A stretch of 64,000 nt of DNA from Candidatus Bathyarchaeota archaeon. GTDB lineage: Archaea; Thermoproteota; Bathyarchaeia; Bathyarchaeales; Bathycorpusculaceae. This document shows, piece after piece, positions 60,863-64,000 of the stretch. Both the position numbers and the translations under genes were made by a program. Within the stretch, counting starts at the first letter, position 1; each line of letters opens with the position of its first letter. The notes under the pieces were generated by a model. It was not told where the DNA came from. It was given only the letters and a program-made list of their open reading frames with translations, and did no database searches. The DNA is taken from NCBI GenBank assembly GCA_016927015.1, contig JAFGNM010000117.1, positions 29,182 through 93,181 of the forward strand, given 5' to 3'.

Positions 60863-60922
60863 TGCTGGAAGACGCGTAAGTGTTAAATATTTGTAAATAT
60901 ATTTCTGTTTACAGGTGAGGGT

Positions 60923-61405
60923 TTGAGTCCAGGCTATTCTTTATCTTCACCACTAAGCCGGAAACAAAAAGCAGTGTGGTCGCTGATAAGCAGAGGCTTG
61001 TCCGTGGCTTCAATCGCTGACAAGCTGAGAACCACGAGGCAATTTGTCAACCAGACAAAACTGGCGGCTGAAGCCAAACTTTCAACAACGCTTCTGGAAG
61101 TTGCACAAGCCAACGACCTTCAAGTGACAAGATTATACCCTAAACAAGCCGTACTTCTCGGCTATCATCCAGCGCTCAAGCGCAAAGCCATCGTGACCTA
61201 CAGCACAAACCACGGGATAAAAGTCTGGTACTGGCACGACAACCCCGAGGAAGTTACCAACGAAGAATTCCTACGCCAGACCCGAGAGTACCTGCTTGAC
61301 ACAGCCAAAGAAAGAGGAATAGAAATCGAAAACGCAGACAAGATTCACCCAGCCAAGCTAGCACACATAATTTTTTGTAAGCTCATCCCAGAGTTGAAAA
61401 CATGA
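60923..61405 (+). CDS. HTH DNA-binding protein, LuxR/sigma70-region-4-type helix-turn-helix, Tfx-like layout
   Basis: LSRKQKAVWSLISRGLSVASIADKLRTTRQFVNQ resembles response-regulator/Tfx-type HTH motifs. The 160-aa size and C-terminal alpha/beta half recall archaeal Tfx (from memory). TTG start. The stop overlaps the next gene (ATGA). Confidence 0.5.
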   Translation: MSPGYSLSSPLSRKQKAVWSLISRGLSVASIADKLRTTRQFVNQTKLAAEAKLSTTLLEVAQANDLQVTRLYPKQAVLLGYHPALKRKAIVTYSTNHGIKVWYWHDNPEEVTNEEFLRQTREYLLDTAKERGIEIENADKIHPAKLAHIIFCKLIPELKT

Positions 61406-61965
61406 CAACCAAAAGAAGTTTAGAAAATCGTATCAGAGGCTGGTTTCCTAAAGAACCTCTTAGAGTTAGTTTCCAAGCTGATATCCTATATTCTGAGTGG
61501 GTCTCGGTTGGAAAATTCGTAAGGGCTATTGTAGGATCTATTTCAGTGCTTGCTCTATTTGTGCTGACAATATCCATCTGGGTTAGCATCTCTATACAGA
61601 ATCCTCTCTTTGCAGTCATATTTGCGTTTCCTCTGATTTTTTTGCTAATTTTGTATGTAAACTATCGAGGTGTTCAGATAATAATAACTTCAAAGGAGCT
61701 CATAGTTAGTTATGGCATCTTGAATCGCAAACGTATTGCTATTTCTGACATAGTTTCATGCGAGCATACTAAAGCAAATTTTGGAAAATATTTGGGTGTT
61801 GGAATAAGATATGGGACTGATGGCTCTTGGGCATATTCAACGTCCTTTAGCAATGCGATAAAAATTAATCAGTTAAGAGGAAGACCCTTCGTCTTTTCTT
61901 CAAACAACCCAGATAAGATTTGCAGCACTATTAGCCAAATGAAGCAGCCAGAAAAGGATAGATGA
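61402..61965 (+). CDS. RGW[FL]PKEP-motif membrane protein 1 (two TM helices plus a small beta-rich C-terminal domain)
   Basis: The N-terminus MTTKRSLENRIRGWFPKEP is followed by two hydrophobic helices. The C-terminus VQIIITSKELIVSYGILNRKRIAISDIV is possibly like a bacterial PH domain. Confidence 0.65.
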   Translation: MTTKRSLENRIRGWFPKEPLRVSFQADILYSEWVSVGKFVRAIVGSISVLALFVLTISIWVSISIQNPLFAVIFAFPLIFLLILYVNYRGVQIIITSKELIVSYGILNRKRIAISDIVSCEHTKANFGKYLGVGIRYGTDGSWAYSTSFSNAIKINQLRGRPFVFSSNNPDKICSTISQMKQPEKDR

Positions 61966-61968
61966 GAA

Positions 61969-62490
61969 ATGGGTGTAAAGAAGAACCTAGAGAAACAAAT
62001 TCGCGGCTGGTTTCCTAAAGAGCCTGCTCTTCCAAGCACTCAAAGCATGAAAATGGCGGCGCAAAAAGAAAATGAAAAACAAAATGAAGCAAAAATTAAA
62101 CAAGTACTTTATGTCATTCTTGGAGTTGGCGGGGTTTTATTAGGTATTTTCTCAGGCATGGGTTATGGATTGTGTGCAGCAATCGTAATTGGTGTCGCTA
62201 CAGCTCTTGTTATAGCAGTGGCTGATAGACATTTGAACCCTCGTCAACGGGGCGCCAAGGAAGTTAGGACTGTAGTTCAAAGAAAAGTGATGAATTCGAT
62301 TTTAATATTTAACGTGGCCATTTTTGGGCTTTACTTAGCACTCTACTTCGGGATTTTGCCGATCATAAGTAATGCTGAACTTGCGTTGGTTATTGTGATA
62401 GCTTTACTTGCTGTATGGTTTTTGGTTAACCGTTTACTTCTTAGGAACCTGCGTAAGCAAGCAACGCCGTCTATGGAGGAGAAATTATGA
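61969..62490 (+). CDS. RGW[FL]PKEP-motif membrane protein 2 (about four TM helices)
   Basis: The N-terminus MGVKKNLEKQIRGWFPKEP is followed by a charged linker and hydrophobic helices. Confidence 0.65.
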   Translation: MGVKKNLEKQIRGWFPKEPALPSTQSMKMAAQKENEKQNEAKIKQVLYVILGVGGVLLGIFSGMGYGLCAAIVIGVATALVIAVADRHLNPRQRGAKEVRTVVQRKVMNSILIFNVAIFGLYLALYFGILPIISNAELALVIVIALLAVWFLVNRLLLRNLRKQATPSMEEKL

Positions 62491-62960
62491 GTTTAAAGAG
62501 AGCATTTATGAACCGTATTCGCGGTTGGCTTCCCAAAGGATACAACTTTACGCTCGCAGATAAAATGTCAAAGCCTCGTTGGTGGAAGCCTCTTTGGGCA
62601 GTCACAATAGTGGGAATCATTGTTTCTACACTCTTCTCCTTCCTTATCTTTCATGTTCCCGTAGAAAGGGCGATTCTGGGACTGGTTCTATCCTTACTTT
62701 GTGTAAGCTTCGCATACTACATCCGCGTCAGGCCTTCAATGAAAATGAATAGAGGCCTATACGTTCTCTTGGGAATAACACCCATCGGATTTTCTCTATG
62801 GATGGTTTTGGCTCTTAGTGGGCTCGGCAGATGGTTAACCAACATGGTTGGCGCTTTTCCTTCTCTTATCATAGGTTGGGTAGTGTGTTTCAGCATAGGC
62901 GCTTTGATAGGCGATTGGATAGGCAAACGAAGAAACTACCACCTGCCCCTTTCACCCTGA
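62487..62960 (+). CDS. RGW[FL]PKEP-motif membrane protein 3 (about four TM helices)
   Basis: N-terminus MSLKRAFMNRIRGWLPKGY. ATGA overlap with the previous gene. Confidence 0.65.
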   Translation: MSLKRAFMNRIRGWLPKGYNFTLADKMSKPRWWKPLWAVTIVGIIVSTLFSFLIFHVPVERAILGLVLSLLCVSFAYYIRVRPSMKMNRGLYVLLGITPIGFSLWMVLALSGLGRWLTNMVGAFPSLIIGWVVCFSIGALIGDWIGKRRNYHLPLSP

Positions 62961-62984
62961 AAACATGGAAGGTTGCTTGAACAC

Positions 62985-63554
62985 ATGAATATAAAGAAAT
63001 ACTTGGAGAATCGCTTTCGGGGCTGGCTTCCTGAAGAGAAGAGTCTAGCATATATGCACAAGTCATCGAAGTCTCGTTGGCGCAAACCCTGCTGGATAGC
63101 TCTTACCTTGGTTAGCGTTGTTGCTCTAGCAGGTTTTACTTTTCTAGGCGTAAACACATATTTACGTTACAGCAACCCAGCTATGGACACTACAACGTGT
63201 TATTACGAGAAAACTGTGAACTGTTCCACCGCAAGCGTAGGCGATATTGTTGAAGTTAACGTTCAGGTGTATTGGCACGGTTATGTATTTCCAGAGTTTA
63301 AACGGGACGTGAAAATTGTTGACTCATTTCCCGAAAGCAACTTCATTCTCATAAATGAAGGCAATGTTTACGAATCCAGCGGTTATGGCGGAAGCTACCA
63401 ACTCCAATACTTGTTAAAAGCCGTTAAAGGAGAAGGCATATCTGTCAAATTGACTGAGCCGAGGCTTTACTTAGATAACGTTGAAGTTTCTCCAGAGGGT
63501 ACAAGTCCAGCTTTGAAGTTACAGAATTTTGCAGAATCAAATATGAGGACTTGA
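62985..63554 (+). CDS. RGW[FL]PKEP-motif membrane protein 4 (one TM helix plus an extracytoplasmic beta domain)
   Basis: From the ATG at 62985 the frame reads MNIKKYLENRFRGWLPEEK. One TM helix (WIALTLVSVVALAGFTFLGV) is followed by VGDIVEVNVQVYWHGY beta-rich sequence. The track start at 62973 adds 4 residues. Confidence 0.65.
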   Translation: MNIKKYLENRFRGWLPEEKSLAYMHKSSKSRWRKPCWIALTLVSVVALAGFTFLGVNTYLRYSNPAMDTTTCYYEKTVNCSTASVGDIVEVNVQVYWHGYVFPEFKRDVKIVDSFPESNFILINEGNVYESSGYGGSYQLQYLLKAVKGEGISVKLTEPRLYLDNVEVSPEGTSPALKLQNFAESNMRT

Positions 63555-63558
63555 AAGC

Positions 63559-64000
63559 CTGAACCTAAAGAAATCTATAGAAAAACGCATTCGCGGGTGG
63601 CTGCCAAAAGAACCCAACCGCCACAGCACCAAGCGTACGATAGGTCGACACCGCTTGGTAAACAAACGTGTACTCATCTTTCTTTCTGTTTCCCTCACTT
63701 GTTTTGTCTTGGTTGCTGGCGGCGCGTATGTTTTTTGGTGGTATTCTGAACAAATATTAGAAAACCTGAAAGGGTATTCTGCAAGGCTTGAGGATGACGG
63801 TTTCATTGTTGAAGAAAAACCTTTGACAGAGTTCAATGTAAATTTCACGCAGGACTGGTACTGGTTTGGCGACTTTCGCACCTATGCTAAACAAGAAAAA
63901 GTGACACACATCTATATTGACCACGAAATAAACGGGCTCTACTATCTCACCCATGTAAGCCCGACAAATGATTCCACCGTGGCAATCATTTTCTATTACA
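63559..64000 (+). CDS. RGW[FL]PKEP-motif membrane protein 5 (partial, runs off the window; no canonical start codon)
   Basis: The frame reads (L)NLKKSIEKRIRGWLPKEPNRH..., then one TM helix (VLIFLSVSLTCFVLVAGGAYVFWW). It stays open to nt 64000. The position homologous to the ATG of the paralogs is a CTG at 63559. An in-frame TGA lies 15 nt upstream. Confidence 0.45.
   Translation, partial: MNLKKSIEKRIRGWLPKEPNRHSTKRTIGRHRLVNKRVLIFLSVSLTCFVLVAGGAYVFWWYSEQILENLKGYSARLEDDGFIVEEKPLTEFNVNFTQDWYWFGDFRTYAKQEKVTHIYIDHEINGLYYLTHVSPTNDSTVAIIFYY

Follow-up and report, generated by a model that had tools for sequence, protein, structure and literature searches.

A Conserved Bathyarchaeial Operon Joins a Helix-Turn-Helix Regulator to Variable Membrane Proteins That Share a 19-Residue Tag, a Putative Docking Peptide

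Organization of the Locus

The DNA analysed here, a stretch of 64 kb referred to throughout as the window, ends in an operon in which the gene of a small helix-turn-helix (HTH) regulator is followed by five closely packed genes for membrane proteins. The five products begin with one peptide, M-x-x-K-[KR]-x-[LFI]-E-x-[RQ]-[IF]-R-G-W-[FL]-P-K-E-P, which we call the tag, and are otherwise unrelated. The features are listed below.

60883..60889, plus strand: TATA-box-like TTAAATA, operon promoter, at the same spot upstream of the HTH gene in 26 loci
60892..60913, no strand: palindrome TGTAAA-N10-TTTACA, inferred HTH operator, between TATA box and start codon
60923-61405, plus strand: HTH regulator gene, 160 aa, TTG start; N-terminal LuxR/sigma-70-region-4-type HTH and C-terminal alpha/beta domain
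61402-61965, plus strand: tagged gene 1, 187 aa; tag 61402-61458, 2 transmembrane (TM) helices, small domain weakly resembling a bacterial PH domain
61969-62490, plus strand: tagged gene 2, 173 aa; tag 61969-62025, 4 TM helices
62487-62960, plus strand: tagged gene 3, 157 aa; tag 62487-62543, KPRWWKPLW motif, 4 TM helices, C-terminal GDWIGKRRNY motif
62985-63554, plus strand: tagged gene 4, 189 aa from the ATG at 62985; tag 62985-63041, 1 TM helix, extracytoplasmic beta-rich domain
63559-64000, plus strand, cut by the window end: tagged gene 5; tag 63559-63615 from a CTG, 1 TM helix, extracytoplasmic domain

The start of gene 1 overlaps the stop of the HTH gene in an ATGA, and the regulator and the array are thus translationally coupled. 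Genes 1 and 2 are separated by 3 nt, genes 2 and 3 overlap in a further ATGA, and gaps of 24 nt and 4 nt precede genes 4 and 5, respectively. An SD-like GGAG lies at -12 to -9 of the tagged genes. The small domain of gene 1 reaches E 0.005 with the bPH_4 model, below the cutoff. Among the bodies (the products without their tags), that of gene 3 is a member of the largest body family, that of gene 4 falls in body cluster 4, with 6 members, and that of gene 5 in body cluster 7, with orthologues of 142-154 aa. Gene 5 has no ATG, GTG or TTG ahead of the tag, which starts at the CTG at 63559 after an in-frame TGA at 63544-63546. In the related scaffold L002, the gene-5 orthologue has 142 aa and a C-terminal ...IIFYYNK*; its stop lies about 10 nt past the equivalent of the window end and is followed by convergent genes. 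The array therefore probably ends just beyond position 64000 and is not much longer.

The first-pass annotation, made from sequence alone, had described five plus-strand genes with near-identical N-termini and ATGA overlaps or gaps of 3-24 nt, coupled to an upstream HTH gene. This held, with the N-termini exactly as it quoted them and the coupling resting on the ATGA overlap. Its TM counts also held (2, 4, 4, 1 and 1 for genes 1-5 by hydropathy scan), as did the claim that the products share only the tag, since the five bodies, tags removed, gave no pairwise BLASTP match at E<1e-5. The term "paralogous genes" was misleading, the bodies being non-homologous, and the suggestion of a longer array is probably wrong. 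The annotation had named recent whole-gene duplication as a scenario that would refute it, and this is excluded because the downstream bodies do not align.

Promoter and Operator

The palindrome TGTAAA-N10-TTTACA occurs a single time in the 64 kb window. Each of 24 genome loci has it once, directly ahead of the HTH gene, and the same holds for all four loci picked through the HTH gene rather than the tag. From this conservation and position, without binding data, we infer that it is the binding site of the HTH protein.

Selection and Location of the Tag

Across all six frames of the window, [RK]GW[FL]P appears solely at the five ORF starts. The DNA copies of the tag in the window are merely 63-73% identical over 62 nt. 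Among 85 tags, G, W and P are invariant with every synonymous codon in use: G13 and P16 each employ all four codons, and R12 uses six. The low DNA identity and the free synonymous choice place the conservation on the peptide, and not on DNA or RNA; selection acts on the tag peptide. The tryptophan is residue 14 in 133 of 149 representative tagged proteins (~90%). The scan with a tag profile that the first-pass annotation had proposed was carried out as an exhaustive search of representative proteins with a profile of the five window tags, and it returned 237 distinct protein clusters at E<=1e-3 among 1.84 billion; in genomes, tags of the strict pattern cluster in arrays.

The bodies are integral membrane proteins of 100-530 aa, and 107 tagged ORFs fall into 32 body clusters. 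Some bear extracytoplasmic PQQ beta-propellers or NosD beta-helices, and many tagged proteins have only ~100 aa (the tag and two TM helices), without an obvious sensing domain. Residue 15 of the tag (L/F/I/V) seemed tied to the body family and not to the genome, locus L008 being an exception in which all tags have I or V.

The region that precedes the first TM helix (TM1) is strongly basic, with a mean of 8.6 K+R vs 2.8 D+E, which points to a cytoplasmic tag, as the first-pass annotation had proposed. A disordered basic linker of ~19 residues joins tag and TM1 (12-28 residues, median 19). Six natural fusion proteins carry two tags with exactly two TM helices between them, which supports the same location; the internal copy retains just the core GW[LV]PK[ED]P. 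The tag, basic and amphipathic, always stands ahead of TM1, and charge and fusion topology together support its cytoplasmic location. A Sec, Tat, class III or lipoprotein signal peptide was rejected, as TM1 begins a median of 19 residues past the tag, the consensus has no RR-x-FLK or lipobox, and the tag is also internal.

Two rival explanations bear on these data. The first is that the 5' segment acts in cis, as a nascent-peptide/mRNA translation element or as an integron-like DNA capture site. The tight packing with ATGA overlaps and the GGAG at -12 to -9 speak for it, as do two loci, L011 and L016, in which pieces of the HTH 3' end remain ahead of internal cassettes; together with rapid array turnover, these pieces suggest recombination at the junction. 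R-G-W-x-P also loosely resembles arrest-peptide chemistry. Against it, the DNA copies are poorly conserved, with free variation at synonymous sites, Rfam gave no match, no conserved recombinase lies nearby, and the core persists as an internal cytoplasmic loop in the fusions, where start-proximal effects are irrelevant. This rival is very unlikely. An integron-like or other cassette array was likewise not met, the sole repeat being the tag-coding segment at 63-73% identity, with no conserved recombinase nearby.

The second rival takes the N-terminal similarity as the leftover of a recent whole-gene duplication, or as a chance or low-complexity artefact. Only the tandem arrangement favours it. 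The non-aligning bodies, the 32 body clusters and the 237 clusters database-wide, the fixed tag position and the peptide-level conservation leave it practically ruled out.

Conservation and Linkage in Bathyarchaeia

The HTH protein is 70-87% identical between Bathyarchaeia species genomes. Of the 37 archaeal loci that the tag search yielded, ~30 have a homologue of it directly upstream of the tagged array and on the same strand; in the rest, the arrays run past the edge of the 8-kb locus and their upstream end is outside. The converse selection agrees, all four loci chosen through the HTH gene having a downstream tagged array. Strict-pattern tags in genomes are all within arrays, and wherever the 8-kb locus includes their upstream end these are HTH-linked, except in L026, a truncated remnant. 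An operon holds from 1 to 9 or more tagged genes, all for membrane proteins, and many have a single one. The content of the arrays turns over rapidly between loci.

Around the arrays examined, there is no conserved third gene and the flanks are non-syntenic; no conserved peptidase, targeting gene, recombinase, modifying enzyme or exporter is found near them. PADLOC and PHROG models gave nothing better than E=0.017, and membership in anti-phage defence or phage was not met. Rfam gave no match. The literature searched (for the motifs, and for Tfx in Bathyarchaeia) holds no description of this system. The operon in the window is one copy of a conserved Bathyarchaeial operon, composed of promoter, palindrome, regulator and a coupled, variable tagged array.

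The HTH Regulator

An AF2 model of the full regulator reached pLDDT 86.6. Foldseek searches of this model against PDB and BFVD gave matches confined to the HTH part, with probability 0.97-1.0 to the DNA-binding domains of GerE, NarL, RcsB and VpsT over 40-68 residues, and no fold analogue of the C-terminal domain that would hint at peptide binding. The profile models are weak on this protein: GerE gave 15 bits, below cutoff, and the HTH part scored 12-14 bits with the sigma70 and ECF models. Modelled alone, the C-terminal domain is poor (pLDDT 65), and neither it nor the tag belongs to a Pfam or NCBIfam family or matches a PDB fold. The C-terminal domain carries an invariant KVWYWH motif and equals the tag in conservation; its aromatic and acidic character (KVWYWHDNPEEVTNEEF) contrasts with the basic tag. 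In total, 1443 homologues of the regulator were counted.

A Second Regulator Class and Tag Swaps

A paralogue of the regulator, HTH2, is 36% identical to the first class, HTH1 (E 7e-29). In 80 metagenome loci, HTH2 is followed by proteins with a different tag, MGxRKRxxDFxxWCPQPP (for example ...DFRNWCPQPP), and the RGW tag is absent from all 80. Sub-variants of the class-2 tag track sub-clades of HTH2, and a conserved palindromic operator, different for each regulator class, lies between TATA box and start codon. In L008, both modules are adjacent in one genome without mixing. Class-specific differences are visible in the C-terminal domain right after the shared VWY-H motif, as read from alignments without a position-by-position test. 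HTH2 also contains an HxxxCxxC motif.

The bodies cross this boundary. Of 63 class-2 bodies, 17 have homologues among the class-1 bodies. In one such pair, identity is 59% beyond about residue 25, yet the tags are unrelated and each fits the neighbouring regulator. Gene 3 of the window itself has a homologous body with a class-2 tag beside HTH2. In these tag-swap cases, the class of the tag goes with the adjacent regulator paralogue, and not with the body that carries it.

The swaps weigh on two further rivals. One holds that the tag is a sorting, insertion or processing signal read by machinery elsewhere, such as a targeting factor or peptidase, the HTH protein being merely the operon regulator. 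In its favour, the tag is N-terminal, basic and always before TM1, the bodies are as diverse as the clients of a general pathway, and the conserved operator gives the HTH protein an ordinary DNA-binding role. However, two tag classes exist in one genome, each limited to the operon of its own HTH paralogue, and homologous bodies change tag with regulator, where shared machinery would impose a single motif. No conserved peptidase or targeting gene lies near the arrays, and strict-pattern tags are HTH-linked wherever the array start is visible, the L026 remnant excepted. The distance of 12-28 residues to the TM helix is unlike Sec, Tat or class III signals, and the tag is kept internally in fusion proteins. 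We judge this rival unlikely.

The other rival sees the tag as an amphipathic juxtamembrane helix through which the array proteins associate with each other or with the membrane surface, as a variable hetero-oligomer, leaving the regulator untouched. Hydrophobic residues do recur at L7, I11, W14 and L15, with a helical hydrophobic moment of 0.42-0.53, and several tagged proteins are co-translated from one operon. The mean hydrophobicity is nevertheless negative and the helix highly charged; operons with a single tagged gene are common, and hetero-oligomerisation within an array is therefore not a general role; self-association also leaves unexplained that the tag class follows the regulator paralogue. 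It, too, seems improbable.

Comparison with Known Systems

The window regulator had been called "Tfx-like". It shares with Tfx the small size, the archaeal origin and the order of an N-terminal LuxR/sigma-region-4-type HTH, which the tests bear out, and a C-terminal domain, and weak HMM matches recur. Membership in the Tfx family was rejected: TIGR00721 gave 17.4 bits, over residues 11-46 only, vs a cutoff of 60.25 bits, and HTH2 gave 16-22 bits, also below it. The TFX_C domain had no match at E<=1 in either HTH1 or HTH2. The claim thus held in part, for the HTH motif only. No link between Tfx and arrays of tagged membrane proteins is known.

The first-pass annotation had also drawn an analogy with DUF1673 of Methanosarcina, and it holds as an analogy. 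In each case, membrane proteins with a G-W-x-P or W-C-P motif have expanded within one lineage, and the class-2 tag ...NWCPQPP is closer to the MGWCP of DUF1673 than is the window RGW[FL]P (class-2 tags have [ND]WCP; no DUF1673 profile was compared). The placement of the DUF1673 motif at the extreme N-terminus follows the first-pass annotation and is stated in neither paper cited, and the function of the family is unknown. Pfam membership was not met, since DUF1673 (PF07895, arCOG06827) had no match in the five window proteins (E<=1), in 104 class-1 proteins (E<=1e-3) or in 10 class-2 proteins (E<=1), and the phylum differs (Methanosarcina vs Bathyarchaeia). The claim that no described family covers these proteins held against Pfam, NCBIfam, PADLOC and PHROG.

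Among the closest known systems are ECF sigma factors with their membrane anti-sigma factors, in particular the ZAS-type factors and those with a short class II anti-sigma domain, as in CnrY. There, as here, membrane proteins are co-transcribed with a protein that has a sigma-region-4-like HTH, and paralogous pairs appear insulated. The arrays meet the test of a co-transcribed membrane protein with a conserved cytoplasmic N-terminus, a TM helix and a variable outside domain. The HxxxCxxC of HTH2 recalls the ZAS factors, although here the motif is in the regulator and not in the membrane protein. Identity with an ECF sigma factor was not met; the regulator has an r4-like HTH only, without regions 2 and 4, and its C-terminal domain is unrelated. 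To our knowledge, sigma factors are absent from archaea. The stretch conserved here spans 19 residues, vs 50-90 for an anti-sigma domain, and one regulator faces 1 to 9 or more non-homologous partners, its binding to the tag being inferred from co-diversification and tag swaps.

Two other comparisons are instructive. Mlc-PtsG and MalT-MalK are transcription factors controlled by membrane sequestration, and resemble our proposal in that a soluble DNA-binding regulator would be titrated by the cytoplasmic part of membrane proteins. They differ in using folded domains of specific transporters, and not a portable tag on arbitrary proteins of the regulator's operon. RiPP precursor arrays share a conserved leader read by an RRE domain. 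The likeness lies in tandem genes, in a conserved N-terminal recognition peptide before hypervariable sequence, and in a helix-rich domain proposed as the reader. Here, however, the "cores" are integral membrane proteins of 100-530 aa, no modifying enzyme, protease or exporter is linked, and Foldseek found no structural match of the HTH model to RRE folds.

Proposed Mechanism

In the model that we propose, the operon would be autoregulated: its operator overlaps the site at which transcription is expected to begin, and the regulator would bind there. The C-terminal domain would recognise the tag peptide, with the core Phi-R-G-W-[LFI]-P-K-E-P, and the regulator, docked at the membrane by the tagged proteins, would be titrated by them. 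How abundant the members of this changeable set of proteins are, or in what state, would thereby be coupled to transcription of their operon and perhaps of further targets. The logic would be like that of a membrane-anchored anti-sigma factor, except that the peptide is short and can be swapped and that a single regulator serves many partners. HTH1 with RGW[LFI]PKEP and HTH2 with WCPQPP and its variants would be insulated pairs, each with its own operator and tag.

The docking reading is based on strict linkage, the fixed tag conserved at the peptide level, its cytoplasmic location, co-diversification, the tag swaps, the class-specific operators and the conserved acidic C-terminal domain. Where the first-pass annotation had left recognition, sorting or processing as options, the new evidence favours recognition, with the adjacent regulator as the inferred reader. 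That the tag is an anti-sigma-like tether for the cognate C-terminal domain nonetheless remains an inference without binding data, its function is unproven, and we hold it as apt to be right as wrong. Co-variation of regulator and tag could possibly arise from co-inheritance in an operon without physical contact. The tag swaps argue against co-inheritance alone, yet they leave room for a class-specific reader encoded elsewhere. A general sensor role is doubtful because many tagged proteins have ~100 aa and no obvious sensing domain, and the sign of regulation, either repression or derepression by sequestration, is a guess.

A bolder reading, which is no more than possible, is that archaea possess a family of small sigma-region-4-like regulators, each reading its own portable N-terminal address tag on arbitrary membrane proteins. 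Its classes would be RGW[LFI]PKEP, WCPQPP with sub-variants, and possibly the MGWCP of Methanosarcina DUF1673. If true, this would be a modular, one-to-many code for membrane-to-DNA signalling or quality control without a described counterpart, in which acquiring the 19-residue tag would suffice to wire a new membrane protein into the regulator.

Implications

Bathyarchaeia are among the most abundant archaea of sediment and peat, and their sensing and regulation are almost unknown. The module is class-wide in Bathyarchaeia: the regulator has 1443 homologues, and the tagged proteins form at least 237 clusters, all without annotation. Its two separable parts, a regulator inferred to bind the operator and a 19-residue peptide, are open to in vitro study without culturing. 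A regulator that does read the tag would provide the first analogue of anti-sigma-type membrane tethering known to us in archaea and a natural case of orthogonal peptide-reader pairs, and it would offer a first functional lead for the MGWCP/DUF1673 expansion in Methanosarcina. Whatever the mechanism, the tag is a new protein-family signature that accounts for dozens of "hypothetical" membrane genes per genome set.

Gene Organization of the Tagged Array

The region 60923-64000 contains six plus-strand genes, which are listed here with the control element that precedes them.

Features of the tag-regulator module in the window
60883-60913: TTAAATA and the palindrome TGTAAA-N10-TTTACA, a conserved promoter/operator directly upstream of the HTH gene
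60923-61405, plus strand: HTH gene (160 aa, TTG start), the regulator
61402-61965, plus strand: gene 1, ATGA overlap with the HTH stop
61969-62490, plus strand: gene 2, after a gap of 3 nt
62487-62960, plus strand: gene 3, ATGA overlap
62985 (ATG)-63554, plus strand: gene 4, after a gap of 24 nt
63559-window end (cut), plus strand: gene 5, after a gap of 4 nt

The first-pass annotation quoted a near-identical N-terminus for each of the five genes downstream of the HTH gene, and all five are confirmed. This 19-residue, class-1 tag has an RGW[FL]PKEP core, and the rest of each protein is referred to as its body. Across the whole window, in all six frames, the [RK]GW[FL]P core is confined to the five ORF starts. 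The tag-coding DNA copies share 63-73% identity over 62 nt, and pairwise BLASTP among the five tag-stripped bodies gave no match. That the tags are alike as a leftover of duplication, or by chance, is practically ruled out, and we consider this reading refuted. A hydropathy scan places 2, 4, 4, 1 and 1 TM helices in genes 1-5, and the gene 2 product is identical to a Candidatus Bathyarchaeota MAG protein (locus tag JXA31_09360).

Gene 5 bears an intact tag, which opens at CTG 63559 behind an in-frame TGA (63544-63546), with no ATG, GTG or TTG before the tag. Its orthologues start with ATG at the same position (L032, a related locus) or at an internal ATG, a few codons ahead of RGW (L002, L005). 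A non-canonical start, a very recent loss of the start codon and a sequencing error each remain possible. The array had also been suggested to extend further, and this probably fails. On the related scaffold L002, the orthologue of gene 5 has 142 aa and would end about 10 nt past the window, and convergent genes follow; five genes are therefore probably the whole array.

Some side observations concern the bodies and the assemblies. The gene 1 body (61402-61965), two TM helices plus a small domain, weakly resembles bacterial PH domains below the cutoffs (bPH_4 E 0.005, bPH_2 E 0.011) and is a singleton among 107 collected tagged ORFs. Genes 3 and 4 carry a second juxtamembrane motif, K-[PS]-R-W-[WR]-K-P-x-W, directly before TM1 (62568-62590 and 63066-63088), which recurs in several further body families (e.g., L005, L007, L008, L034 and L035). 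The ENA scaffold L002 has an N-gap at 600-660, exactly at a tag-coding segment, with an identical C-terminal coding sequence repeated on either side. Assemblers seem to collapse or break the arrays where the tag repeats, and MAGs may therefore understate array length.

Linkage of the Tag to a Regulator and Its Operator

In the genome loci, an HTH homologue (70-87% identity) lies directly upstream of a tagged array of 1 to 9+ genes on the same strand, and the loci without one are arrays running past the 8-kb locus edge. When loci were selected through the HTH instead of the tag, a tagged gene overlapped the HTH stop in 4/4. No conserved third gene was found near the arrays, the flanks are without synteny, and the GC content of the module equals that of the window.

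Alignment showed TTAAATA followed by TGTAAA-N10-TTTACA upstream of the HTH in 26 loci. By exact pattern, the palindrome occurs once per locus in 24 loci, always upstream of the HTH; the window copy (60892-60913) is the only one in 64 kb. Judged from sequence alone, its position coincides with the expected start of an archaeal transcript. Such a position is classic for a repressor. Autoregulation of the operon by the HTH is inferred from this position, without binding data.

Fragments homologous to the last 25-35 HTH codons are also seen upstream of internal tagged cassettes (L011:1460-1567 and L016:2976-3053), and in L011 the start codon of the cassette is gone (ATG to GCG). These observations suggest duplication or insertion of cassettes at the HTH-gene 1 junction, followed by their decay.

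Distribution of Tagged Proteins

One genome per GTDB species was scanned with a degenerate DNA pattern for IRGW[FLIM]PKEP, for which about 5 chance matches are expected by an information-content estimate. The scan returned 39 stretches: 36 from Bathyarchaeia, one from a Nitrososphaeria-labelled MAG and two from bacteria. These genome loci hold 107 tagged ORFs, with RGW exactly 11 residues past the Met in about 80%. All have at least one TM helix (range 1-10) except two short ORFs of 64 and 68 aa, which are probably truncated; the others span 83-534 aa. Their bodies form 32 unrelated clusters. No Pfam family common to 104 tagged proteins was found, the isolated matches being NosD/beta-helix in one and MFS_1 in two.

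With a profile built from the five window tags only, an exhaustive search of 1.84 billion representative proteins recovered 237 clusters at E<=1e-3. W stands at residue 14 in 133 of the 149 representatives examined, and ten that were looked up carry, where a source name is given, only "hypothetical", bar one "MFS permease".

The Tag as a Portable Cytoplasmic Peptide

The consensus of 85 tags is M1-N-x-K4-K5-x-L7-E8-N9-R10-I11-R12-G13-W14-[LFI]15-P16-K17-E18-P19, in which G13, W14 and P16 are invariant and R12 is kept in 82/85. All four codons are used for G13 and for P16, and six for R12; this free codon use indicates selection on the peptide. The N-terminal regions average 8.6 K+R against 2.8 D+E, and a K/S/P/R/T-rich linker (median 19 residues) leads to TM1. 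The positive-inside rule puts the tag in the cytoplasm. Residues L7, I11, W14 and L15 would line one side of a short amphipathic helix ended by P16, an inference resting only on sequence. A tag that acts merely by self-association, or as an interfacial helix, is an unlikely alternative reading of such a segment.

Six natural fusions (database proteins P0125, P0130, P0158, P0208, P0228 and P0239) have the order tag, two TM helices, tag and more TM; in P0228 the scan called one inter-tag helix, and the second was assigned on visual inspection. Two intervening helices place both tags on the same membrane side. The internal tag retains only the (R/K)GW[LV]PK(E/D)P core, and its existence argues against roles that need a free N-terminus or proximity to a start codon. 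Some seemingly untagged genes within arrays hold tags that have decayed, for example to KVWFPQEP or IRGVLPKES. A further explanation, that the segment is a cis-acting translational or recombinational element, is very unlikely: it is weakened by the free synonymous variation and the internal tags, no Rfam match was obtained, and no recombinase is conserved near the arrays. The tag is a portable cytoplasmic peptide, selected as such.

A Paralogous Regulator with Its Own Tag

A paralogous regulator, HTH2, aligns with the window HTH (HTH1) over its full length (36% identity for a representative, E 7e-29). Scanning metagenomes with HTH2 returned 103 related loci; 80 of them were retained (L049-L128). 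The genes downstream of HTH2 carry a class-2 tag, MG[IL]RKR[FL][RK]DF[RK][ND]WCPQPP, with W at residue 13 (e.g., MGIRKRLKDFRNWCPQPPNPLPTKL), and no RGW tag was found in the 80 loci. Sub-variants of this tag (…WCPQPK, FWDWCRNPPEIP and LWYYCPRP) track HTH2 sub-clades. HTH2 operators lack TGTAAA/TTTACA and consist of inverted repeats of GTAAG(C)/(G)CTTAC, with sites of the form GTAAGC-N8-GCTTAC. Both systems can coexist: at L008:1213-7004 (minus strand), an HTH2 module lies directly upstream of an HTH1 module in the same genome, with the HTH2 gene 3 kb from the HTH1 module. The HTH2 partner there is a 749-aa, single-pass, beta-propeller-like protein with an FCPEPP tag (start MKIREKIRRFCPEPP), and the HTH1 module comprises HTH1 and six RGW[IV]P-tagged genes, all with I or V after W.

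The most informative result is body homology across the tag classes. Of 63 class-2 bodies, 17 have homologues among the class-1 bodies. Extracytoplasmic beta-propellers of PQQ type (E 1e-51) also occur in class 2. One pair shares 59% identity from about residue 25 on, and begins VGVREKLWYYCPRP beside HTH2 and MNPKKYLEDRIRGWLPKEP beside HTH1. Window gene 3 and its class-2 counterpart (30% identity, E 3e-11) align only past the tags. Which tag a protein carries therefore goes with the regulator and not with the protein itself. A sorting or processing signal for unlinked machinery is unlikely, as two coexisting class-specific tags and the tag swaps weaken it.

HTH2 (e.g., L056:3887-4402) carries an invariant WYKHEGDCxxCx5C, including HxxxCxxC, where HTH1 has WYWHDNPEE, and every class-2 tag has an invariant Cys (W-C-P/R). 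The HxxxCxxC motif is known from zinc-binding anti-sigma factors. The two sets of cysteines could possibly form a common or switchable metal or redox site.

Structure of the Regulator and Comparison with Known Systems

The indexed database holds 1443 HTH homologues; the best 120 share 78-90% identity, and some are JGI-labelled "CsgD family". The AlphaFold2 model (pLDDT 86.6) has three helices (the third long), four strands (67-103) and helices across 114-159. Foldseek matches are restricted to the first 40-68 residues (LuxR/GerE/NarL-type domains). For the C-terminal domain, in which the aromatic and acidic stretch KVWYWHDNPEEVT is invariant, neither PDB nor BFVD gave a significant match.

No curated family cutoff was reached by the HTH (GerE, 15 bits). 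The first-pass annotation had called it Tfx-like, which holds in part: TIGR00721 (Tfx) reaches 17 of the 60 bits required, over residues 11-46 only, and no TFX_C domain was found, so that the likeness is limited to the HTH motif and the protein does not qualify as a family member. The analogy it drew to DUF1673 stands as a likeness only. The WCP of the class-2 tags bears a striking resemblance to it, but the Pfam model matched none of the tagged proteins and the class-2 bodies gave no DUF1673 match; by analogy, we treat this as a lead, not as membership. Defence, phage and RNA libraries gave no match to the module, and a literature search for the tag motifs and for Tfx in Bathyarchaeia found no description. 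The tag-regulator module is real, widespread and undescribed.

Proposed Mechanism and Significance

The module is conserved in two parts, an operator and a peptide tag, each specific to its class. Since the C-terminal domain of the regulator is the only other class-specific conserved component, it is the inferred reader of the tag, without binding data. Tagged proteins would hold the regulator at the membrane or titrate it there, in the manner of an anti-sigma factor, and operon transcription would thereby be coupled to a changeable set of membrane proteins. The evidence leaves this reading finely balanced: many bodies are too small for sensors, and a class-specific reader could still be encoded at another site. 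ECF sigma/anti-sigma pairs have the organisation and the proposed logic in common with the module, but not the proteins. Under this best-supported mechanism, the module would be a new form of regulator control by membrane tethering; a bolder reading, which is possible, is that of a modular archaeal "address-tag" code.
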